From NCBI GenBank assembly GCA_965261135.1, contig OZ253443.1:2416841-2480840 (forward strand): a DNA stretch of 64,000 nucleotides, read 5' to 3'. Below, in pieces: positions 20,355-57,725 of the stretch (within the stretch, counting starts at the first letter, position 1; the number at the start of each line of letters is the position of its first letter). Under the pieces are notes generated by a model that saw only the letters and a program-made list of their open reading frames with translations, searched no databases and was not told where the DNA came from. The stretch comes from Acidimicrobiia bacterium (GTDB taxonomy: Bacteria; Actinomycetota; Acidimicrobiia; Spongiisociales; ZC4RG35). The position numbers were made by a program, and so were the translations under genes.

Positions 20355-20876
20355 CTATCGGACATCGTGAAAGGACTTGAACATTTCGCTCACATCTCTG
20401 TTGTTCCCTTGGCACAGCTGATCGAAAGCTGATGGCCCCATATTTCCCGGTTCCAATAGGAGCATGGTTGTCTTGGCTGGATCTCCTAGGTCAAGGGCCC
20501 GCACGATCCCAACGATCTGCATGAGGCGCTCCACGTTAGAGGCACTAGGGCTTTTACCTTGTGCCCAAAAGTGCAAGGACCGACGCTGTACGCGCAATGC
20601 TTGCGCAAGTTGTGTCCAAGTCAGTTCGGTCTTGCTCCTGAGTTCCGCTAAGGCACGTTGGCTGGACAGTGGTTCGTGAAGATAGGTACGGCCGTATGTT
20701 GTTCCAATCCCTATTAGCAGGAAAGAACCTTTTTGGTTGTCCGTAAAGGCAGCCCCACTGTTTGTGCCAATAGCTGTCCAAGTGGAGAGAACACCGCTTG
20801 GTCCAGTATCTGTATGCAAAACCGGGTTCTGGCCAATCTGGGATCCTCCCAACAAGAACGGGATTCCTACGTTCAA
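20355..20876 (-). CDS. hypothetical protein with Gly/Thr-rich N-terminus and central XRE-like HTH
   Basis: 173 aa. The only in-frame start before the HTH (LRSKTELTWTQLAQALRVQRRSLHFWAQGKSP) is TTG at 20874-20876, which overlaps the TGA of the upstream gene (TTGA). GGTGG SD 6 nt upstream. GC ~50% vs ~65% background. Confidence 0.45.
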   Translation of the reverse strand: MNVGIPFLLGGSQIGQNPVLHTDTGPSGVLSTWTAIGTNSGAAFTDNQKGSFLLIGIGTTYGRTYLHEPLSSQRALAELRSKTELTWTQLAQALRVQRRSLHFWAQGKSPSASNVERLMQIVGIVRALDLGDPAKTTMLLLEPGNMGPSAFDQLCQGNNRDVSEMFKSFHDVR

Positions 20877-21700
20877 ACTGCACCACCATATTGGCGGAGC
20901 AGATCAGGGCGCACAGCCCACCGGAAGAACCGATAGATGTGTTCCGCGAAACTGGCCCCTATTGAAATCACCTGATCGACATCGAATCTGCTGACCTGGG
21001 TTGTGTACATGTCAAGATCCAGGATCCAGGAGGGAGAAGCGATGGTTTCTCCATGAAGGGGATCGAGTTGTGCATTAGAGGGGAGCCATCCCCAGCGTCC
21101 GTGAAACGTAGCGTTCCCGATTCGATAGGATGTGTCGGAGACGCTATGTACGAGTTCCGCGCCCTCACCCGGGTTGACTGTGACCACGCCTAGCATTTCG
21201 GGTTTGACAAGGGCACCAAGGTTCATCTCGATCTCATCGAGACGAACCCGATCCACGTAGCGGATACCGACCCGATCGTAAGTGGAGGGAGCAATGGTGG
21301 CCGCCAGCGCATCGATGACTGCGTGAAGCCGCCTGAGAAAGTCGATCCTACTTTCGTACTCAGACGTGTCGAGTGCAACAAATGACGGCGCCAAGGAGAC
21401 TTTCCAGGCTGGATTTGTCGGGCGGTCAAGAAACCGCCAGATCGGATTGGACTGACCTGCGGAACTGACACCCTCCTGAGTGAGAACGATGTTCGCCTCA
21501 CGCTCTTGGCGTAAAACGGGATAGTCCGCTCGGATCCTCTCTTGGAAAGGCCCGATGAACTCCTCCCGCGTGATCGACACAATGGGCGGAAACCTGACCT
21601 GTGCCACAACAGCGACCAGAGGTGCTGATGAGAGTGGGATCTCCTCAACAGGTTCCCCAAACGGAGTCTGCAAATCTAACGCGGCGGTCACACTCCCCAT
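20873..21700 (-). CDS. hypothetical protein (recalls the uncharacterised TIGR04255-type family; unverified)
   Basis: 276 aa from the ATG at 21698-21700 (MGSVTAALDLQTPFGEP..., APLVAVVAQVRFPPI segment). GC ~55%. Translationally coupled to the downstream HTH gene. Confidence 0.4.
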   Translation of the reverse strand: MGSVTAALDLQTPFGEPVEEIPLSSAPLVAVVAQVRFPPIVSITREEFIGPFQERIRADYPVLRQEREANIVLTQEGVSSAGQSNPIWRFLDRPTNPAWKVSLAPSFVALDTSEYESRIDFLRRLHAVIDALAATIAPSTYDRVGIRYVDRVRLDEIEMNLGALVKPEMLGVVTVNPGEGAELVHSVSDTSYRIGNATFHGRWGWLPSNAQLDPLHGETIASPSWILDLDMYTTQVSRFDVDQVISIGASFAEHIYRFFRWAVRPDLLRQYGGAV

Positions 21701-21769
21701 TTTAATCACTTCGCGATCCCTCCCGGAGTGTGTAGTATTGTGTGAAATAGAAGAAAGGAGGTGAAAACC

Positions 21770-21895
21770 ATGGCAACTCGGAAAGTCCACCGCTCCGCGG
21801 TGTCGGGCCGCTTCGTAAAGCCCTCGACAGCTAAGCGACACCCTCGCACCACCATCACCCAGACCATCAAAACGTCAAAGAAGAAGGGCAAGTAA
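21770..21895 (+). CDS. unannotated 41-aa highly basic small ORF with strong Shine-Dalgarno
   Basis: AAAGGAGGTGA then an 8-nt spacer then ATG. MATRKVHRSAVSGRFVKPSTAKRHPRTTITQTIKTSKKKGK. Divergent from the 20873-21700 gene. Below the ORF-track length cutoff. Confidence 0.3.
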   Translation: MATRKVHRSAVSGRFVKPSTAKRHPRTTITQTIKTSKKKGK

Positions 21896-22094
21896 AGAGA
21901 GTCAGGCAACCAAACCGCCATCACAGAATGAGGAGAGGCCCGCAACAACCGTAACAGGAGTGTCGCGAAGCCTTGCCGAGCGGCCCGGTTCCCTGATCCC
22001 TACGAGGCATCTCAACGAAGCCGAATCACTTGCCCAGCAAGAGGTGGGATGACTTTCATCCCAGCCGTCAGCCATACACCAGAAAGGAAGCGAT

Positions 22095-22382
22095 ATGACA
22101 CAATACGAATATAACGGCGAAACATTCTTCATCGATGACGCGGCAGACACCTGTGAAATCAAGGTTTCCGACAAGACCAATACCGTATCCATCACTCTGA
22201 ATCAAAACGGGGCTAGCACCTACAGAGTATCCACAATTGAGGGCAACTGGTGGTGGCACACCAGCACAGTTGAGGAATCTGTCAACAGAGCATGTCGGGT
22301 GTTGATTGACTATGAAAAGGCTACTCCTTCGGAAGAAGCTTGTGCGGATATGCACAAATTTGTAAAGAATCTCCCTGCCTAA
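22095..22382 (+). CDS. hypothetical 95-aa protein, low-GC orphan
   Basis: GC ~45% in a ~65% genome. SD-like gaaaggaag before the ATG. No recognisable motif. Confidence 0.4.
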   Translation: MTQYEYNGETFFIDDAADTCEIKVSDKTNTVSITLNQNGASTYRVSTIEGNWWWHTSTVEESVNRACRVLIDYEKATPSEEACADMHKFVKNLPA

Positions 22383-22601
22383 CAGCTCTCATCAGATAGA
22401 TCTGGGGTTTGATAGCTTGGAGGAAACGGAATATCTTTGACCCCCGTGAGGACGATTACCAATCACCGCCAGGTTTCAGCCCTAAACGCTGTGCGCACAA
22501 TACTTGGAATAAAATGGTGCCCGTGGATCGGAGCCTTTCTTGAAGGCTGGAGCCTATCAGGGCTCCCTACGCCCCATGGCTTCATCGGACGGAGCGGCGT
22601 C

Positions 22602-44538: not shown

Positions 44539-44958
44539 TCATGCCGATGTCATATCTTCTCTGCTCCGGCGTCTGAAATCGACCAGCCGCCGCGCCTCTT
44601 CAACAATGTCCGAAAACATGGATCCGGGCGGAAAAGTAGAGGCTCCTCGGTCCTGCAGGGCCGATCGGTGCTGAGGCTGGATGGTTCCACCCACCATCAC
44701 TCCGGCGTCGGGAGCGCGACTCTCCAGTTCATCGAGGATCCGCATCACCACCGCCAGACTACCCCCCACGTTCAGACCCACCACGTCCGCGTCTTCTTGA
44801 ACCGCCGCCGCCGCTATCTCGTCGGCGGTGGCCATCCCCAGATAGATCACCTCGAATCCGGCGTCCCGCAACACGTGTACCACCACCGCCGGACCTCGCC
44901 AATGGCCGTCGAGAGCCGTCTTGGCAAACAACACCTTGCCGGGCCGGTCAACGCTCAA
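44539..44958 (-). CDS. B12-binding small subunit of a split acyl-CoA mutase (MCM C-terminal-domain homolog)
   Basis: 139 aa. GPAVVVHVLRDAGFEVIYLG pattern and DxHxxG-equivalent region. ATGA overlap with the large-subunit gene. Confidence 0.7.
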   Translation of the reverse strand: MSVDRPGKVLFAKTALDGHWRGPAVVVHVLRDAGFEVIYLGMATADEIAAAAVQEDADVVGLNVGGSLAVVMRILDELESRAPDAGVMVGGTIQPQHRSALQDRGASTFPPGSMFSDIVEEARRLVDFRRRSREDMTSA

Positions 44959-46589
44959 AATGAGATCGGCACCTTCCAGTCGCCGAAAACCTCGCTGAAC
45001 ACATCACCGAATTCCCCCAAGGTGGCTTGTGCGGCCACCGCTTCCATCACAGCCGGCATGACGTTGGCGTCTCCCCGACACGCCGCCTCCAGATCGCGCA
45101 GGGCGACCACCGCGGTTCGCCCGTCCCGTTCGCGCCGGACCAGGCTCAATCTCTCCATAGAGCTCTCCCAGACTCCCTCCACCGGTTCGAACCCGGTCAT
45201 CTCCCAAGGCGTCACATCCTCGGTGAAGGCATTGACACCCACTACCGTCCGGGCGCCAACGCTGACCGCGCCCGCCATCTCCAGTTGGTTGGCGGCGGCC
45301 AGGGAATGAAGCCACCCCTCGTCCAGCACCGCCCCGAAGCCGCCCCTGTTCTCGATTTCTTCAAACATCTCCCAAGCGCGGGTTTCCAATTCCGCGGTCA
45401 GCGCCTCCACGTAGTGCGATCCTCCCAAGGGGTCCGCCACTGCGGGGATGTTGGTCTCGTGATGGATGATCTGTTGAATCCGAAGCGACATCTGGTGGGC
45501 ATGTTCGGAGGGAACCGACATGGCCTCGTCGTAGGTCGACACTCCCAGGGACTGTGTGCCGCCCAGCACCGAGGCCAGGGCCATGATCGTTCCCCGGGCA
45601 ATGTTGTTGAGAGGCTGCTGATAGGTCAGGGACGATCCGGCGGTGACGATATGGATTCGCATTCGGGTGGCGCGCCCGTCGGTGATCCCATAGCGGCGTC
45701 CCAGCAGATCGGCCCACATCTTGCGGGCCGCCCGCATCTTGCAGATATCCTCGAAAAAGTCCATTGACACCCGCAGGTTGATTCCGCCCACCATGTAAGC
45801 CAGGCGCGCCAGGTTCTCCGGCGCCCGGCGTTGGATCTCATCGAGATACACCACCGCGTTGGCGAAGAGCGCGGCCAACTCCTGATAGGCGTTCAAACCG
45901 GTGTCCGCGGCGTTGTATGCGGCGATCGAGACCGGAACCCACCGGGGGAGATGCTGGCCGCAGAATTCGATGATGTCGGTGTTGAGCCGGATCCCCGCCG
46001 CGGTGGGGATCTGGCGTTTGGGAATGCACCCCAGGTAGGTGAGGAAAAAGTCACTCTGGCCGGTGCCCGCCAGCCGGGACAGATCCATGCCGCGCCGCTG
46101 GGCGACGGTCCAATAGCACCCCAGCGCGAAGGGAGCGTGCTGAACCACCGCTCCACCGGGATGGGCGTAGTTGCGGCTCATGTCGATTCCGTCGAGCACC
46201 GTTTCGTAGTCCCGCACGCTCTGGATAACCGCCCCGGTCTGTCCGACATCCTCACGCCGGGCCACCACCTCGGGGTGATCAACGTTGTAGAGATGGTCTG
46301 CGGTGTTGCGGTCATGCTCCATGATGAAACCCGTCTCGCCCTGATTCAGCAGGAACTTGATCCGCTCCCGCTCATCCTCGGGATTGCCGTGTCCGCTGAG
46401 CTGGAACACCCGCCAGGGTTTGGTCCGGTACATGCCGGGATAGGCGCCGCGCAAATAGGGAGGTACCCCCGGCGGACCGGCCGCTGCCTCCCGTGACTCC
46501 GGGGGGACATCACCGGGGCCGTACCAACCGGCCAGGGGTATCCCCGAGGCGGTGAAGAACCGGTCAGATTCGCCCTGTCTGGAACTCAT
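44955..46589 (-). CDS. acyl-CoA mutase large (substrate-binding TIM-barrel) subunit, methylmalonyl-CoA mutase family
   Basis: 544 aa with MCM N-terminal-domain features (PYLRGAYPGMYRTKPW..., FFTAS...). The B12 domain is encoded separately downstream. Confidence 0.75.
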   Translation of the reverse strand: MSSRQGESDRFFTASGIPLAGWYGPGDVPPESREAAAGPPGVPPYLRGAYPGMYRTKPWRVFQLSGHGNPEDERERIKFLLNQGETGFIMEHDRNTADHLYNVDHPEVVARREDVGQTGAVIQSVRDYETVLDGIDMSRNYAHPGGAVVQHAPFALGCYWTVAQRRGMDLSRLAGTGQSDFFLTYLGCIPKRQIPTAAGIRLNTDIIEFCGQHLPRWVPVSIAAYNAADTGLNAYQELAALFANAVVYLDEIQRRAPENLARLAYMVGGINLRVSMDFFEDICKMRAARKMWADLLGRRYGITDGRATRMRIHIVTAGSSLTYQQPLNNIARGTIMALASVLGGTQSLGVSTYDEAMSVPSEHAHQMSLRIQQIIHHETNIPAVADPLGGSHYVEALTAELETRAWEMFEEIENRGGFGAVLDEGWLHSLAAANQLEMAGAVSVGARTVVGVNAFTEDVTPWEMTGFEPVEGVWESSMERLSLVRRERDGRTAVVALRDLEAACRGDANVMPAVMEAVAAQATLGEFGDVFSEVFGDWKVPISF

Positions 46590-46692: not shown

Positions 46693-47079
46693 TTACCAAA
46701 GGACGCCGGTGCCGAAATGCCTGAAGGCGGCGTCTCTGGTTACCAGGGTCAGCAATTCCATGTCAGCCTGGGCGGCCAGCATCCGATCGAAGGGATCACG
46801 GTGATCCACTGAATAGGTCCCAGCTCTCAGACAATGCAGGTAGTTGACTGCGAGATGTTGAAACCCATCCGCTTGTACCAAGTCGTGGAAGCGGCGCACG
46901 GCGTCGGGAGCATGGTCAAGGCGCCCCAGGCGCCGCAGCGTTGCGATCTCCCAGGCACTGGCCGCGCTCACGTACACCTCGGATGCCGAATCGGCGATAG
47001 CGCTCCTGGCTCGTATCGAAAGACTGGAATTGTCGGTCCACCACCACAACAGCACATGGGTATCGAGCAGCAGCCGCAT
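46693..47079 (-). CDS. vapC: PIN-domain ribonuclease toxin, VapC family
   Basis: MRLLLDTHVLLWW... with the conserved acidic residues of the PIN fold. 128 aa. Directly downstream of the antitoxin remnant. Confidence 0.75.
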   Translation of the reverse strand: MRLLLDTHVLLWWWTDNSSLSIRARSAIADSASEVYVSAASAWEIATLRRLGRLDHAPDAVRRFHDLVQADGFQHLAVNYLHCLRAGTYSVDHRDPFDRMLAAQADMELLTLVTRDAAFRHFGTGVLW

Positions 47080-47267
47080 TATCTCCGTTCCCAGGCGTCG
47101 AGCTCGGTCTGTGGCAGAGGATCGAGTATCTCGGGACCGACGAACTGGTCCGAGAGCCGTCCGGGGCGGCGGGCGGCCTCGGGTGGGGGAAGGGGCCCCA
47201 GCACCGCGTAGGGCTTGCCTGCTTTGGCGAGGATGATCTCCTCCCCGGCATGAGCGCGATCCAACAA
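47079..47267 (-). pseudogene. 3' portion (62 codons) of a Phd/YefM-type antitoxin gene, severed from its 5' end by an IS insertion
   Basis: Reads (L)DRAHAGEEIILAKAGKPYAVLGP..., the conserved core of Phd/YefM antitoxins. It lacks the N-terminal beta-strand. The only in-frame start is the TTG at 47265-47267, inside the target-site duplication. Confidence 0.55.
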
Positions 47268-47271
47268 TTTG

Positions 47272-48618
47272 AGGCTTCGCGATATGTTGGGATTCGGGTA
47301 GGGAGGGGGTCCTTGTTTAGGGGTTGAGGCCTCGCTGGAATAGGTGGTGTAAATCTGCCTATCCAGGAGGCCTCAATGAGTTTCGATGTTATGAGGGTGC
47401 GGTTGCACCTGCGTGGTGTTGGTGTGACCGGTGTGGTGGTGGACACCCCCGCAGAGTTGGTGGTGGAGGTGATGTCCACCAGGAAGTTGTCATCGTGTCC
47501 GTTTTGTGGGCGTTCTTGCCGGCGGGTTCATGACCGTCGCCGGAGGGAGATCCGTGATCTGGAGCACGGCGGCCGCCCGACGGTGCTGTTATGGACCCAG
47601 CGGCGGTTCGTGTGCAACCATTGTGGAAAGCGTCATATGGAAACCCATCCCCAGTTCGAGGGTGGTCTCACTCGCCGGTTGGCGCGCAGGCTGGTCCAAG
47701 ACGCTCAGGTGATGCCGATCAGTGCGGTGTCCCGCCGCCACCGTGTGGGGTGGCATCTGGTCATGGGACTGCTCTGTGACTGGTCGGGACTGGTCCAAGA
47801 TCATCGTCGCAAACAGTCCTGTCGGGTGTTGTTGATTGATGAGACCTCGATCCGCAAACGGCATCGTTATGTGACCGTGATCCTCAACGGTGACACCGGA
47901 GAGCTGTTGGACATGATCCAAGGACGCTCCAAAGCTGCTCTGAGCAGGTTTTTCATCGCGCAAGGACCCCGATGGTGCCAGAACGTGAATACCGTGGTCA
48001 CCGACGGTTCCCACTCCTACCGCGCAGCTATTCATCGTTATCTTCCCCGAGCCCGTCACGTCCTGGACCGCTTCCACGCCGCCCGATGGTTCACCCAAGG
48101 ACTGACCCTGGTACGCCGGGAACTGCAACGCCGCCAACCCCCAGGAGTGAAACCGGCCTACGAACCGGACCTGTTCAGAGCCCGGTTTTGTCTGCTGAAA
48201 CGAAACGACCATCTCACCCCTGCAGACCAACGACGTCTCCAGCGTTTGTTCGCTGCTCATCCCCGTCTCAAAGTGGCCTGGGACGCCTTACAGGAGCTCT
48301 ACGGCCTGTACGAGGCCAACGATCTCCAAGGCGCCCTGGAAGCCCTCGACCGTTTCGGGGACCTCTACAACAGCGGACAGATTCCCGAGTACCACGACAC
48401 CGTGGACACCATCCTCAACTGGGCCGACGAAATCCTGAACTGGCACCACAGCCGCCGTTCCAATGGACCCCTCGAAGGCATCAACAACCTAATCCAAACC
48501 CTCCGCAGAACCGCCCACGGCTTCACAAACCCCCAAAACTACGCCGCCCGAGGACTCCTCCTAACATGAACCCCACCACCAACCAGCCAGACCACAATCC
48601 CACGAATTCGCGAAGGGC
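47272..48618 (+). mobile_element. ISL3-family insertion sequence (~1.35 kb) with a 10-bp target-site duplication
   Basis: Direct repeat CAACAATTTG at 47262-47271 and 48619-48628. Imperfect terminal inverted repeats: gaggcttcgcgatatgttggg at the left end, and cccacgaattcgcgaagggcc at the right end in the inverted sense. Single transposase ORF inside. Confidence 0.75.
47376..48569 (+). CDS. ISL3-family transposase
   Basis: N-terminal zinc-finger CPFCG...CNHCG. DDE domain with the characteristic ISL3 C-terminal region (…HHSRRSNGPLEGINNLIQTLRRTAHGF). Confidence 0.8.
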   Translation: MSFDVMRVRLHLRGVGVTGVVVDTPAELVVEVMSTRKLSSCPFCGRSCRRVHDRRRREIRDLEHGGRPTVLLWTQRRFVCNHCGKRHMETHPQFEGGLTRRLARRLVQDAQVMPISAVSRRHRVGWHLVMGLLCDWSGLVQDHRRKQSCRVLLIDETSIRKRHRYVTVILNGDTGELLDMIQGRSKAALSRFFIAQGPRWCQNVNTVVTDGSHSYRAAIHRYLPRARHVLDRFHAARWFTQGLTLVRRELQRRQPPGVKPAYEPDLFRARFCLLKRNDHLTPADQRRLQRLFAAHPRLKVAWDALQELYGLYEANDLQGALEALDRFGDLYNSGQIPEYHDTVDTILNWADEILNWHHSRRSNGPLEGINNLIQTLRRTAHGFTNPQNYAARGLLLT

Positions 48619-48672
48619 CAACAATTTGGACAGATGCGTCTTCGCTTGGTGGACGTTCACGATCGAAGTCAT
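48619..48672 (-). pseudogene. stranded 5' end (18 codons) of the antitoxin gene with its SD
   Basis: Minus strand reads AAGGAGGAGAAAGCC-ATG ACT TCG ATC GTG AAC GTC CAC CAA GCG AAG ACG CAT CTG TCC AAA TTG TTG (MTSIVNVHQAKTHLSKLL). This joins in frame to DRAHAGEE... at 47267 once the IS is removed. Confidence 0.6.
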
Positions 48673-48810
48673 GGCTTTCTCCTCCTCTTAGTCTGCCTGT
48701 GGACTTATCTATAGGTAATATTAGCTAAGTCTATAAACTAAGGTATCTATTCGGGTCCTGCCAAGGGAAGCCCCGCTTCTTCTTGCCTTGGAGGCAGCCG
48801 GGCATATCAC

Positions 48811-48893
48811 AAGCCGGGGGTCTTCGGATGCTCCGGTGCACAAACGGCAATTCCCATAGCCGTCAAGCCCGCTCCGATCACTTCAACTGGCAA
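48811..48893 (-). pseudogene. degenerate duplicate of the eamA 3' end
   Basis: ~85% identical over ~80 nt to 50346-50425 (C-terminal codons and stop of the EamA gene), but with in-frame stops and an indel. Confidence 0.45.
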
Positions 48894-48904
48894 AAGCGAT
48901 TTGC

Positions 48905-49912
48905 TCAAAAGCCGTGGTTCGTATCTTGGTCTTGCAGGTCTCCCATGATCTTCTCGATCCGTGGGTCGAATTCTTCTTTGAACTTGGGCAAGAGATCAAG
49001 CATCCACGCTCTAATGTCCTTCTGTTTCGCTGGTGAGTCGGTTATCGAGCCGTCTCTCTTTAATGAGTTGATTTCGGAGAACAGAAAGGGGTTATGTCTC
49101 CGCCAGTCCCACTCCAATGATGGCTCCGCGGTGATGGTTCTTTCAATCTCCTGGCGATCCGCCTCCAAGGCATCGAATATGCATTTGGTCAGATCCTTTT
49201 CGTGGGTCGCAATATGAAGGGTCACCCAGGCAGCCTCTTCAACCCCAAGAGTGACCGTGTACCAAATGCCTTTGTTAACGGGAGAAGGAAAGCCACGATC
49301 CTTATAGCTAAAAATCTGGATAGGTTGCTTTTTGAAAGCGCCTTTCTGGATCAGTTTGTCAACCAAAGGCTTGAAAAACTCTTGGTGGATCAACTTCTCG
49401 ACGGGCAGGTCGGTTGGACGCAGGGTGAGTTCCTTGTTCCAGCCGCCGGGGTAGACCACTTTGCGGAATCTGGGCTCGGGTTGTGAGCCTACCGGGGCCT
49501 TCACAGCTTCGATCTTGACACCGTAGAGCCGGGTCCCATCCGCAGTCCTCTCATTGAGCCAATGCAGAGCTTTAGCATGCTCACGGAGGAATTCGGGCGC
49601 AACCCATATCATCACTTGCGCCCCACGACCCGCCGCGTAGGTGAGCAACTTGCCCAGATGGTCGTGGTCGGTCCACTTCAATTGGTTCTCGATTGCAACC
49701 AAGGTTTCCTGGTCCGAATCGGCTTCTTTCGCCAGGATGTCCAAAGAGAACCGGCCTACTTGTGTTTCCTGGCCGACTAACTCCAACCGGAGCCCGATTT
49801 CCTCCCCCAATAGGTGCAGATTCTTAGCTAGCCATGGGGTGAATTCACGCGCCTCATGCTTCCATATTGTATGGACATCTACCTGCTCGGCGCCCGGTTG
49901 GCTCTCACGCAT
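48905..49912 (-). CDS. hypothetical protein with PD-(D/E)xK nuclease-like N-terminal motifs
   Basis: GRFSLDILAKEADSDQETLVAIENQLKWTDHDHLGKLLTY resembles the D...E-x-K/Q ... (Q/K)xxxY core of restriction-endonuclease-like folds. GC ~50%. Start is the ATG at 49910-49912 (MRESQ...) or the ATG at 49943-49945. Confidence 0.45.
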   Translation of the reverse strand: MRESQPGAEQVDVHTIWKHEAREFTPWLAKNLHLLGEEIGLRLELVGQETQVGRFSLDILAKEADSDQETLVAIENQLKWTDHDHLGKLLTYAAGRGAQVMIWVAPEFLREHAKALHWLNERTADGTRLYGVKIEAVKAPVGSQPEPRFRKVVYPGGWNKELTLRPTDLPVEKLIHQEFFKPLVDKLIQKGAFKKQPIQIFSYKDRGFPSPVNKGIWYTVTLGVEEAAWVTLHIATHEKDLTKCIFDALEADRQEIERTITAEPSLEWDWRRHNPFLFSEINSLKRDGSITDSPAKQKDIRAWMLDLLPKFKEEFDPRIEKIMGDLQDQDTNHGF

Positions 49913-49919
49913 GAGTTCC

Positions 49920-50276
49920 CTATTCCTTCCTGACACCGCTGTCACCGGGTCTGATCACGAAGTCGCGACGGTCCCGATAGAGCAGCGCCCGGTTCAGCAC
50001 ATAGTCGTCAGACTCCAAGTCGATGTCCGGGCACTCCGTCATCGTCCAGTACTTGTAATCACCCAGGAACAGATAGTTTCGCTTCTGGTGGAAGAACCAG
50101 CATTCCACGCCCTCATCTGCGGCGATCCGGGCACAAAACGCAGCTAACAAAGCCTGCTGTCCGTCCCTTTTGATCACCACGTATTCGTGAGGCCAGGAAT
50201 TCCGGTATGTAACCGCCTCCCGCCACGGAGCACTGGATATCAACCCCATAATTTCCACAATTCGCTCTTTCGACAC
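49920..50276 (-). CDS. hypothetical 118-aa protein, partner of the nuclease-like gene
   Basis: GTG at 50274-50276 preceded by AGGAGGA at 5-nt spacing. Only the 3' third of the 362-aa track ORF is plausible. Ends 7 nt before the next start. Confidence 0.4.
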   Translation of the reverse strand: MSKERIVEIMGLISSAPWREAVTYRNSWPHEYVVIKRDGQQALLAAFCARIAADEGVECWFFHQKRNYLFLGDYKYWTMTECPDIDLESDDYVLNRALLYRDRRDFVIRPGDSGVRKE

Positions 50277-50341
50277 AGACTCCTCCTTCAACTGGCAATC
50301 CACGCTATCAGGGCCCTGTGACAGGCCGCCGGGGTTTGAAC

Positions 50342-51235
50342 CTAGAAGCCGGGGTTCTTGCGGATGCTCCAATGCACTACGGCAATGCCCAGAGCCGTCA
50401 AGGCCACTCCGATCGTCTCCACTGCTGAGAGGGCCTGGCTCAATGCCACCCAGGCGGTCAGCGTACCCACTATGGGCTCGGAGGTGGCCGCCACCCCCAT
50501 TGGACCAGGACTGATGTGACGAAGTGCACTCATCAGCAGCAGATACCCTATCGCCATTCCCAGGATCGACACCCAGGCCACTCCTACCCAGCCTGCCAAT
50601 GAGAGTTCGGGAACCTCCACCGGAAGCGCTGCCAGCCAAATCACCGCCGCAAGGGTCAGGCTGTAGGAACTGTAGGTAAGAGGATGGAGGGTCTTGCCCA
50701 GCTTCTCCGCCGTGATCGTCAGGGCGGCGTAGGAGACAGCCGCTCCCAAGCCGGCCAACACGCCTATCACATCGGCGTAGTCGGCGGTGAAAGCACCCGT
50801 GATCAAACCGATTCCGACGACTGCTCCCAGCGCTCCCAGCCAGCCGACGACGGGAACCTCCAATTGTTGAACGAAGCGTCGCCACATCAGCATCAGGATC
50901 GGTCCCAGATACTGGATGGTGATTCCCGGGCCCACCCCCAAACGCTCCACCGCCACATAGAAGACATAGGTGATCACAGCGGTTATCACTCCCAGCAGCA
51001 CCAACCACCCCAACTGTCCCTGGTGGTGCATCAGGCCCTTTCGGGCCGCTATAAAGGAGATGACCACCGCGGCCACCACCAACCGGTACTGATTGAGTTC
51101 GGCCGGACCGATCGATGAAAACAGGCCGGCGGCCACCGTGTCCGATATGGCGAAGAGAATTCCGCCGGACAACGCCATTGCAAATCCCAATCCCGGTCGC
51201 CGGGACAAGGGGGCGGGATTCGGAGGTGACTTCAT
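50342..51235 (-). CDS. EamA/DMT-superfamily transporter
   Basis: Ten predicted TM helices and a duplicated EamA domain pattern. 297 aa. Confidence 0.7.
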   Translation of the reverse strand: MKSPPNPAPLSRRPGLGFAMALSGGILFAISDTVAAGLFSSIGPAELNQYRLVVAAVVISFIAARKGLMHHQGQLGWLVLLGVITAVITYVFYVAVERLGVGPGITIQYLGPILMLMWRRFVQQLEVPVVGWLGALGAVVGIGLITGAFTADYADVIGVLAGLGAAVSYAALTITAEKLGKTLHPLTYSSYSLTLAAVIWLAALPVEVPELSLAGWVGVAWVSILGMAIGYLLLMSALRHISPGPMGVAATSEPIVGTLTAWVALSQALSAVETIGVALTALGIAVVHWSIRKNPGF

Positions 51236-56390: not shown

Positions 56391-56516
56391 TGCTTCCATC
56401 TATCTAAACACTGTGACCTTCTGCTGACCCTGCGACGCCGATAGTGTAGTGTTTGTTTTGCCAAGTTAGTGTTGTGCGGTAGTGTTTTGTCACACGCCTA
56501 CGGCATACTGGTAGAG

Positions 56517-57725
56517 ATGAACAAGACAGCTATCAACGGGCGAACCGCCAATGAGGCGAGACTGTTGGCGCCCACCCTGCCGGTAGACGAAGCTACCTTG
56601 GAACAGCTTCAGGATCGGTTGCAGTCCGCCATCCGGGTCGAGAACCAAGCAGCCGCAATCCAGGCGGAGACCCTGGCGGAGATGACCCGCCGGGAAGGAA
56701 TCGAACTAACCGAGAACACCCTCCGAGAAACCGGTCTGCGGTCCCGCCGCAAGGCCCGCTCAGAAGCAGAAACCGCCAAGGAACTCAAAGACCTACCGGA
56801 AACGTCGAAGGGTTTGCGTGATGGGGAGATTTCCTATGACAACGCCCGGATCCTGGCCAAGGCCTCCCAGCGGGGAGAGATAGACGAAACCGAACTGGGT
56901 GACGCGGCAAGGTCGCAGTCACCTGACAAGTTCGCCGGAACCGTCAGAAAATATGAGCAACAGCGTTCCCAAGACGACGGAATGTCCCGGTTGGAGTATC
57001 AACGTTCCCAACGGTTCGCCAGGATCAAAACCGATCCCGCCGATGGTATGAAAGTGCTCTACGGACGGTTCGATCCGATCACCGGAGCATTGTTGGAAAC
57101 AGCCCTGTCACAGAAGATGAACGAGTTGTGGCGGGAAGAAGACCCCCAGGATCGGCGCACCCCCGGCCAGAGAATGGCAGACGCCCTCACCATGTTGGTA
57201 ACCAGAGAAGACACAGACGAAGATGAGAACTCTCGGGGACCCAGGTTGTTGCTGATCGCCGACTACGACGTCATCAACCGGGAGCTCCGTAACGGGCGTC
57301 TGTCCGATGGGACACCCGTTCCTGTGGAGAAGATCCGCGACCTGGCCTGTCAGGCCGACTTACTTCCCGCAGTATTCCGGGGCGTGTCACAACCCCTGGA
57401 TCTGGGACGGGCCCGGCGGATCGCCAGCCCGGCTCAACGGGTGGCTCTGGTCGCTCGGGACCGGGCATGTGTGGGATGTGGAGCCTCTACCACTTGGTGT
57501 CAGGCGCATCACATAATCCCATGGGCGGTGGGAGGGAACACCGACCTGGACGACATGTGTCTCCTATGCTCCCGCTGCCACCACAAAGTCCACGACAACA
57601 ACTGGGTAGTACGCCGAACCCCCACCGGCAAATACACCCTCAAACCACCACGCAAACACCACCATCACACAGGCAACCCACGCAACCATCCTCGCAGGCG
57701 GACCACCATCAAGCAGCGGAAATGA
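56517..57725 (+). CDS. DUF222 + HNH endonuclease domain protein (REP13E12-type)
   Basis: C-terminal HNH: CVGCGASTTWCQAHHIIPWAVGGNTDLDDMCLLCSRCHHKVH. N-terminal region typical of the actinobacterial DUF222 family. Start at the ATG 56517. Confidence 0.7.
   Translation: MNKTAINGRTANEARLLAPTLPVDEATLEQLQDRLQSAIRVENQAAAIQAETLAEMTRREGIELTENTLRETGLRSRRKARSEAETAKELKDLPETSKGLRDGEISYDNARILAKASQRGEIDETELGDAARSQSPDKFAGTVRKYEQQRSQDDGMSRLEYQRSQRFARIKTDPADGMKVLYGRFDPITGALLETALSQKMNELWREEDPQDRRTPGQRMADALTMLVTREDTDEDENSRGPRLLLIADYDVINRELRNGRLSDGTPVPVEKIRDLACQADLLPAVFRGVSQPLDLGRARRIASPAQRVALVARDRACVGCGASTTWCQAHHIIPWAVGGNTDLDDMCLLCSRCHHKVHDNNWVVRRTPTGKYTLKPPRKHHHHTGNPRNHPRRRTTIKQRK

Follow-up and report, generated by a model that had tools for sequence, protein, structure and literature searches.

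The interval between the transporter gene eamA and a methylmalonyl-CoA-mutase-like gene (MCM) in an Acidimicrobiia bacterium is, in the reading that we consider fairly probable, a chromosomal hot spot for small defense and toxin-antitoxin (TA) cassettes, and the second, incomplete copy of the eamA 3' end that it contains is a scar of homology-anchored illegitimate recombination. The DNA analyzed, to which we refer as the window, is a stretch of 64,000 nt from contig OZ253443.1 (GCA_965261135.1; positions 2,416,841 to 2,480,840, forward strand), and all coordinates are window positions unless assigned to another locus, position 1 being the first letter of the 64-kb stretch. About 30 related Acidimicrobiia loci were compared at the eamA-MCM interval: a genome scan with EamA yielded the loci of 13 species-level Acidimicrobiia metagenome-assembled genomes (MAGs), to which conspecific and sister loci were added through exact-protein look-ups. 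Related loci carry labels of the form L0xx, and database proteins carry labels of the form P0xxx.

A second eamA 3' end within the eamA-MCM interval

The part of the interval adjoining eamA consists of the following features, listed from eamA outward.

50342..51235 (-): eamA, an intact EamA/DMT-family transporter gene, 297 aa from the ATG at 51235 (Pfam EamA, E = 5e-27)
50342..50443 (-): right repeat copy R, the functional end of eamA (last 33 codons, 99 nt, plus the stop)
50324..50341 (-): spacer of 18 nt, GTTCAAACCCCGGCGGCC, from the eamA stop to the g2 upstream motif; conserved in L017 and L035
50302..50323 (-): g2 upstream motif, TGTCACAGGG-N5-GATAGCGT, the 5' limit of the g2 module
49920..50276 (-): g2, 118 aa, with a GTG start and the ribosome-binding site GAAGGAGG; conserved partner of the nuclease gene
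48905..49912 (-): nuclease gene, 335 aa, NucS-like PD-(D/E)xK with a C-terminal DUF4268; candidate defense family PDC-S11, MdgA-like
48807..48908 (-): left repeat copy r1, a displaced, frameshifted, and 5'-truncated eamA 3' end

The eamA gene, which databases annotate in a 278-aa form, has orthologs at 74 to 83% amino acid identity in 13 Acidimicrobiia MAG species, with hyuA and hyuB adjoining in every case. Its last codons recur in the same orientation as r1, with 78 of 103 alignment columns identical (76%) and a longest common exact stretch of 10 nt. The local alignment of the two copies scores 86, against 28 for the runner-up match of the eamA end in the whole window and 16.3 +/- 2.2 (maximum, 28) for a control of 2000 shuffles; the similarity is far above chance, and the repeat is unique in the window. 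An earlier note on this DNA had described a duplicated eamA 3' end in this orientation at about 85% identity, and the duplication itself is upheld. Identity is about 86% in the core of the repeat (48811-48880 versus 50346-50415, with two 1-nt indels), and the repeat extends some 15 nt beyond the limits given in the note, reaching the nuclease stop codon.

That r1 is the displaced end of eamA, as the same note held, agrees with its recovery by an nhmmer profile of functional eamA ends (E = 7e-16, model positions 48 to 146), and r1 is also found in L014, L017, L018, and L035 at 93 to 99% identity. It is a promoterless pseudo-fragment, truncated at its 5' end and without a start codon. Contrary to the note, it is not riddled with stops: its translation in the eamA frame, LSKSLLPVEVIGAGLTAMGIAV..PGL*, terminates at the homologous stop, and two indels (+1 and -1) spaced by 17 nt scramble six codons.

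The nuclease gene has its stop codon at the edge of r1. The 1.43 kb between the two copies (48909-50341) have a GC content of 54% (g2, 55%; nuclease gene, 53%), higher than the figure of about 50% given before, versus 61.3% for the window, and just 1.8% of same-size windows have a GC content as low. As anticipated, this interval holds two minus-strand genes, g2 and the nuclease gene, which are co-directional and separated by a 7-nt gap, and Pfam searches on all interval genes returned no integrase.

The eamA-MCM interval is hypervariable among relatives

The flanks of the interval are conserved, with hyuB-hyuA-eamA on one side and the genes for MCM, a B12-binding protein, and an acyl-CoA synthetase on the other, whereas the distance between eamA and MCM varies between 40 bp, an empty site, and upward of 8 kb. 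The two genes lie 40 bp apart in L004 and 425 bp apart in L002, and L009 has vapBC alone between them, without g2 or the nuclease gene. Other species lack the 1.43 kb between the two eamA copies, which supports the proposal of the earlier note that this is inserted DNA. A convergent gene for a 230-aa membrane protein, then g2, and then ctaB/ctaA are present in L001, L005, L007, L008, and L010; the companion of g2 is the nuclease gene in L007, a nuclease fragment in L003, and a Fic gene in L005. Other cargo includes McrBC (L006, L011, L013, L018, L035, and L037), a MunI-like fragment with a D12 methylase (L017), and Fic with Macro behind a 5' fragment of MCM (L036 and L037), and a functional eamA is directly adjacent to vapBC in L006, L009, and L013. 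Strains whose flanks are 97% identical differ in cargo.

No integrase was encountered in the approximately 30 related loci, and the Pfam tables of L014, L017, L018, and L031 to L038 and of the window genes contain no integrase or recombinase domain; the search for recombinases covered the window together with as much as 10 kb of flanking sequence. A motif screen of the window's open reading frames (ORFs) for integrases, which is a weak test, was also negative. Nor is the locus an integron-type array, as there is no integrase and the cassettes are separated by pieces of eamA rather than by imperfect-palindrome attC sites. Because the flanks are conserved, the content is variable, and an integrase was seen at none of the loci, we interpret the interval as a defense and TA hot spot between core genes.

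Some features of individual loci deserve separate mention. In L036 and L037 (11204-11479 and upstream, in the coordinates of those loci), the MCM 5' fragment comes straight after eamA and is followed by Fic, McrBC (L037 only), and Macro; rearrangement can disrupt the far side of the hot spot as well. The restriction-modification (RM) cassette of L017 (8830-9138 and 9634-10728 of that locus) has an intact D12-class adenine methylase gene and a MunI-like C-terminal fragment of 102 aa, possibly a decayed restriction gene that left an orphan methylase. A block comprising hyuAB, eamA, g2, the nuclease gene, and vapBC occurs twice on contig ctg362279 (L017 at 2.71 Mb and L018 at 0.10 Mb of 2.73 Mb), with distal cargo that differs (RM versus McrBC), and P0283 and P0284 are likewise both on one 483,723-bp contig. 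A doubled block near contig ends probably represents two strain haplotypes joined by the assembler, not a true duplication.

Further eamA scars accompany the cargo

When all loci were searched with an nhmmer profile built from 14 functional eamA genes (their last 150 nt), additional orphan eamA ends (scars) came to light. One lies between vapC and g2 in L011 (E = 5e-6); another, r2, follows vapBC in both L017 and L035 (model positions 25 to 146; E = 6e-13 and 2e-13, respectively); and a third, r3, directly adjoins the strain-specific MunI-like/D12-methylase cassette of L017 (model positions 100 to 147; E = 3e-9). Scars range from about 57 to 135 nt in length, with 5' limits at about -135, -100, and -57, and every one of them reaches the eamA stop. 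Conspecific strains hold one or two scars beyond r1, and L017 has three in all (r1, r2, and r3).

The orphan fragments are all on the same strand, and each comes with cargo, as follows.

(i) The window has r1 with vapBC.

(ii) L017 has r1 with vapBC, r2, and r3 with the RM cassette.

(iii) L035 has r1 and r2.

(iv) L011 has a scar with g2.

Each scar precedes its cargo in the way that a functional eamA precedes the same cargo elsewhere (for vapBC, in L006, L009, and L013). The window has a junction of eamA, a TTCAAAC-containing spacer, and g2; the scarred form of this junction lies downstream of vapBC in L011, where a TTCAAAC remnant of the spacer follows the degenerate eamA scar and precedes g2. 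The same two blocks therefore occur in opposite orders in the two loci.

The scars also differ in age. The one farthest from eamA, r3, is nonetheless about 96% identical to current functional alleles (r1, 76%) and carries the CGCAGAAAC variant found in the L035 allele. Because r3 is the farthest from eamA but the least decayed, the RM cassette appears to have arrived distally, bringing with it part of the donor's eamA end. Derived characters are shared by r1 and r2 (the +1 T, AAATCGCTT, GCCAGTTGAAGTGAT, and GGAGCGGGCT) and occur in 0 of 34 functional eamA orthologs, on account of which r1 and r2 are best viewed as sister copies or as gene converted. The window, L014, L017, L018, and L035 have one and the same junction of the nuclease gene with r1, bar a single T in L035 that lets the nuclease ORF run six codons into r1; because this junction is common to five loci, the duplication in the window has a single origin, followed by inheritance or exchange within the group. 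An overlap of about 6 nt (GGCTTT/TTGAGC type) at the joint of the nuclease gene and r1 is at most arguable.

The eamA gene is itself variable in a patchwork manner. Between L035 and the window, identity is 96 to 100% in hyuAB, 73 to 88% over a stretch of about 700 nt in the body of eamA, about 95% in its end and in g2, 52 to 94% across a mosaic nuclease gene, and 95 to 99% in vapBC; sliding identity reveals smaller divergent patches between L017 and the window. In 12 conspecific EamA alleles, 9 of 33 residues vary at the C terminus versus 21 of 245 before it (Fisher P = 0.004, or 1e-4 without the most mosaic allele), and C-terminal sub-blocks are reassorted between alleles. These patterns mark eamA as a recombination mosaic.

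Origin of the scars

In the favored reading, cassettes are gained, lost, and reshuffled at the eamA-MCM interval among related Acidimicrobiia. The species of the window has two tandem blocks, one formed by the working eamA end, the 18-nt spacer, g2, and the nuclease gene and the other formed by r1 and vapBC. Recombination would be anchored by homology in eamA or MCM, while the other end would form an illegitimate joint some 100 nt ahead of the eamA stop. Linear donor DNA might have entered by homology-facilitated illegitimate recombination (HFIR), or a circularized fragment by a Campbell-type single crossover. The eamA gene would thereby keep one complete end, and the other end would be orphaned, still carrying the cargo that once followed it; the arrangement of r1 and vapBC mirrors that of the functional eamA and vapBC in L006, L009, and L013. 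We infer this mechanism from its end products. Homology-anchored illegitimate recombination is preferred over a dedicated integrase because the scar starts vary, a distal scar is fresh, there is no shared core, the loci compared have no integrase, MCM is broken in one lineage, eamA is a mosaic, and g2 modules elsewhere are without an eamA-like flank.

Several considerations weigh against this interpretation. HFIR, Campbell-type, and integrase-mediated integration all yield the same topology, and the three to four joints within the last 135 nt of eamA are more clustered than random joining predicts, which could hint at a preferred site. The freshness of r3 could in principle be due to gene conversion by the functional copy, and the derived characters shared by r1 and r2 are unexplained by a simple model of one event per scar. 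The search for recombinases was confined to the window with at most 10 kb of flanking sequence, and the putative defense role of the cargo is deduced from a hidden Markov model (HMM) match with a candidate family and from a motif that resembles one in MdgA.

The earlier note had taken the duplicated end for the footprint of site-specific integration, which we think unlikely. A small integrative element whose attP contains the last ~100 nt of eamA would have been inserted there by a tyrosine or serine integrase, since lost or else encoded elsewhere (a cis-mobilizable, integrase-less cassette). Such an event would account for a direct repeat of the target gene's 3' end around DNA of foreign composition, with the function of the gene kept, and for the empty sites in relatives, but no integrase is present at any of the roughly 30 loci, and the two copies match exactly over no more than 10 nt. 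Several scars do cluster in the last 135 nt of a single gene, and the variable part of conspecific EamA alleles starts about where r1 starts; the 5' limits of the scars differ, however, and the youngest scar is the most distal, which contradicts serial integration at one att site in eamA. In addition, g2 modules elsewhere lack eamA-like sequence, g2 was not found in IMG/VR viral contigs, and the gene on the opposite flank, MCM, is also broken (L036 and L037).

The polarity of the event might also be reversed, an explanation to which we give somewhat less credence. Here, eamA, g2, and the nuclease gene would be resident, and the newcomer would be a piece of donor DNA that starts some 100 nt short of the donor's eamA stop and brings vapBC (and r2), with homology as its anchor toward MCM and an illegitimate joint at the end of the nuclease gene. 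The r3 scar with its RM cassette in L017 would be just such a distal arrival with a partial donor eamA end, and a recombination breakpoint between strains falls in the last ~20 to 100 nt of vapC. The frame of r1 is open to the homologous stop, as expected of a copy from a working gene, but r1 is only 61 to 71% identical to every sampled functional allele, more diverged than these alleles are among themselves, and its type of C terminus is seen in none of the 34 functional orthologs. A functional eamA next to vapBC in three other species fits vapBC as the older neighbor. Within homology-anchored recombination as well, the DNA that came in may have been vapBC together with its partial eamA end, rather than g2 and the nuclease gene.

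More speculative, and in our view quite improbable, is that the last ~100 to 135 nt of eamA constitute a dedicated docking site where promoter-to-stop defense cassettes (g2 with the nuclease gene, vapBC, and RM, for instance) are captured and stacked by means of an unrecognized trans-acting site-specific or single-strand-annealing system, in effect an integron-like platform without intI in uncultured Acidimicrobiia, and that g2 is an obligatory new partner controlling MdgA/PDC-S11-type nucleases. A purely local rearrangement (tandem duplication of the eamA end and its neighborhood in one genome, followed by deletions and without horizontal input) is very hard to credit, for although r1 and r2 look like sister copies and some scars may stem from local duplication or gene conversion, the GC content of the cargo deviates, g2 and the nuclease gene occur at 75 to 85% identity at unrelated loci in MAGs labeled as different phyla, cargo differs between strains with 97% identical flanks, and the cargo would have to consist of native paralogs, of which the window has no second copy.

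A PDC-S11 nuclease and its conserved partner

The cargo between the eamA copies probably encodes an anti-phage type IV-like nuclease and a conserved partner, g2. The nuclease matches the PADLOC PDC-S11 model over its full length (E = 1.2e-72, residues 9 to 321) and Pfam DUF4268 with 29.7 bits (cut-off, 27). Its N-terminal half bears a PD-(D/E)xK signature, ..LDIL..AIENQL.. (D58...E75-N-Q-L), and its homologs have variable C-terminal tails. MdgA, a single protein of NucS plus DUF4268, is a modification-dependent anti-phage nuclease (bioRxiv 10.1101/2025.02.28.640651) that resembles the window nuclease in domain make-up and in an equally positioned catalytic-Glu motif, (A/V)IEN(Q/K)L, where AIENQL (E75) corresponds to VIVENKL at MdgA E77 (from the E77A primer sequence); this likeness was judged by domains and the primer-derived motif. 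The two differ in that MdgA was sufficient alone in E. coli, whereas the nuclease gene of the window, like those at several unrelated loci, follows g2 after a gap of 7 nt and, in several clusters, such nucleases are fused to g2.

The g2 protein is identical to database protein P0001 and has zero matches in Pfam, NCBIfam, and PADLOC. Its 1450 homologs fall into 388 clusters at 50% identity, and some are 75 to 85% identical even in MAGs labeled Chloroflexi or Rhodospirillaceae. Adjacency of g2 and the nuclease gene is also seen at unrelated loci (L019 to L026 and L029), and fusions of the two occur in no fewer than four distinct 50%-identity clusters (P0128, P0134, P0135, and P0143, each with full PDC-S11). 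Fusion of g2 to the DUF4268 domain only is found in P0123 and P0126, and P0208 joins a g2-like domain to an ADP-ribosylglycohydrolase. Because an N-terminal g2 domain is fused to differing partners, g2 is suggestive of a modular sensor or regulator domain, more than a mere neighbor of the nuclease, and it would accompany or control nuclease activity. It also occurs without the nuclease (L001, L008, L030, and L031 to L034) and, in L005, before the Fic gene.

The motif upstream of g2 is probably a promoter or operator; a scan for the sigma-70 consensus did not call it. Nucleotide homology to the g2 modules of L003, L007, L010, and L011 begins at window position 50323, and the TGTCACAG motif precedes g2 at the unrelated loci L029, L030, and L019 too. 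At non-eamA loci, g2 modules start at their own upstream motif, without an eamA-like flank.

The vapBC module, an ISL3-family element, and the far flank

Beyond r1, the interval continues to MCM as follows.

48673..48806 (-): spacer between r1 and vapB, with an imperfect hairpin GCCTCCAAGG..CCCTTGGCAGG and the vapB operator-like repeat CTTAGTTTATAGACTTAGCTAA; GC content, 48.5%
48620..48672 (-): vapB 5' fragment, a Phd/YefM-type antitoxin gene interrupted by an insertion sequence (IS)
47272..48619 (+): ISL3-family IS, 1348 bp, with its transposase at 47376-48569 (Pfam DDE_Tnp_ISL3, E = 3e-61)
47079..47271 (-): vapB 3' fragment, matched by tblastn to vapB of L009, L011, and L013; continuity established via L014
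46693..47079 (-): vapC, an intact PIN-domain toxin gene (Pfam PIN, E = 5e-15; 92% amino acid identity to vapC of L011)
44955..46589 (-): MCM, the conserved far flank of the hot spot

With a PIN toxin gene and a Phd/YefM antitoxin gene (split here by the IS), vapBC has the makeup of a type II TA module, and its operator-like repeat is common to the vapBC modules of L009, L011, and L013. L014, L017, and L018 have an intact 78-aa PhdYeFM_antitox gene in the same place. The IS is flanked by a target duplication of 9 to 11 bp, (CC)AACAATTTG, and is missing from the 99.5%-identical strain L014, whose sequence equals the empty site; its insertion into vapB is recent because it is missing from that strain. 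The surmise that the TA module and the IS are part of the same variable region is borne out by this absence and by vapBC being variable cargo across species. The IS splits vapB while vapC is intact; silencing by polarity and a toxin left without its antitoxin are both conceivable. The MCM gene is recognizable by tblastn at 88 to 92% amino acid identity in eight species, and its product is assigned to Pfam MM_CoA_mutase in L014.

Other notable spots in the window

A second low-GC islet, at about 20355-22500, has a GC content (~53.5%) as low as that of the eamA interval and lies among metabolic genes. It includes the gene for an XRE-type helix-turn-helix protein (20355-20876, -), a 322-aa ORF with no Pfam match (20873-21841, -), and a 95-aa ORF (22095-22382, +). 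A gene combining DUF222 and an HNH endonuclease (56469-57725, +) lies between genes for a GFO_IDH-type oxidoreductase and an alpha/beta-hydrolase; it is present in the window and in L035 and is missing from the same position in L036, L037, and L038, a further presence/absence polymorphism, here of a possibly selfish gene.

Relation to known systems

Three known systems offer comparisons. In E. coli, e14 and phage 21 insert into the 3' end of the protein-coding gene icd and supply a replacement end; elements of this type carry an integrase gene beside their att site and always use the same core for recombination. The eamA locus is similar in having a duplicated gene 3' end around foreign DNA, an intact gene, and a displaced end reduced to a pseudo-fragment but differs in the absence of an integrase or shared core, in its variable scar lengths, and in a cargo of just 1.4 kb.

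Parallels also exist with C-terminal displacement arrays (rhs genes and the effector-immunity arrays of the Vibrio cholerae type VI secretion system), for which an HFIR origin has been proposed (Kirchberger et al. 2017, PMC5361080, and Jackson et al. 2009, as cited in it). As in those arrays, the 5' body of the gene is conserved while a new 3' end is imported along with the cargo behind it, the former end and cargo are shifted downstream in unchanged orientation to give arrays of several orphans, no recombinase is present, and the flanks are recombination mosaics. In contrast to them, the anchor is a housekeeping-type membrane transporter gene, not a polymorphic toxin gene; the exchanged ends are near-synonymous, not functionally new; the cargo consists of anti-phage and TA genes, not immunity genes; and at least one cassette (r3 with the RM cassette in L017) seems to have arrived distally.

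The third comparison is with the core defense hot spots (cDHS) of Pseudomonas aeruginosa, which, as described by Johnson et al. (2023, PMC10250203), lie between conserved genes and are without mobile-element genes. The two have in common a fixed pair of flanking core genes, a defense content that is highly variable between close strains, and turnover with no integrase or transposase behind it, and what sets the eamA locus apart is that physical scars, namely orphan ends of a flanking gene, survive between its cassettes and bear directly on how these were joined. We see the locus as a further, well-preserved form of phenomena already known (the defense hot spot and the 3'-end displacement array), not a new kind of element.

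The case bears on how defense genes enter and move between chromosomal hot spots without mobile-element genes. Because this locus preserves orphan flank-gene ends between its cassettes (up to three per strain), the joining events become reconstructable. In addition, the PDC-S11/MdgA-type nuclease, listed as a single-gene candidate, has in g2 a widespread and sometimes fused partner.

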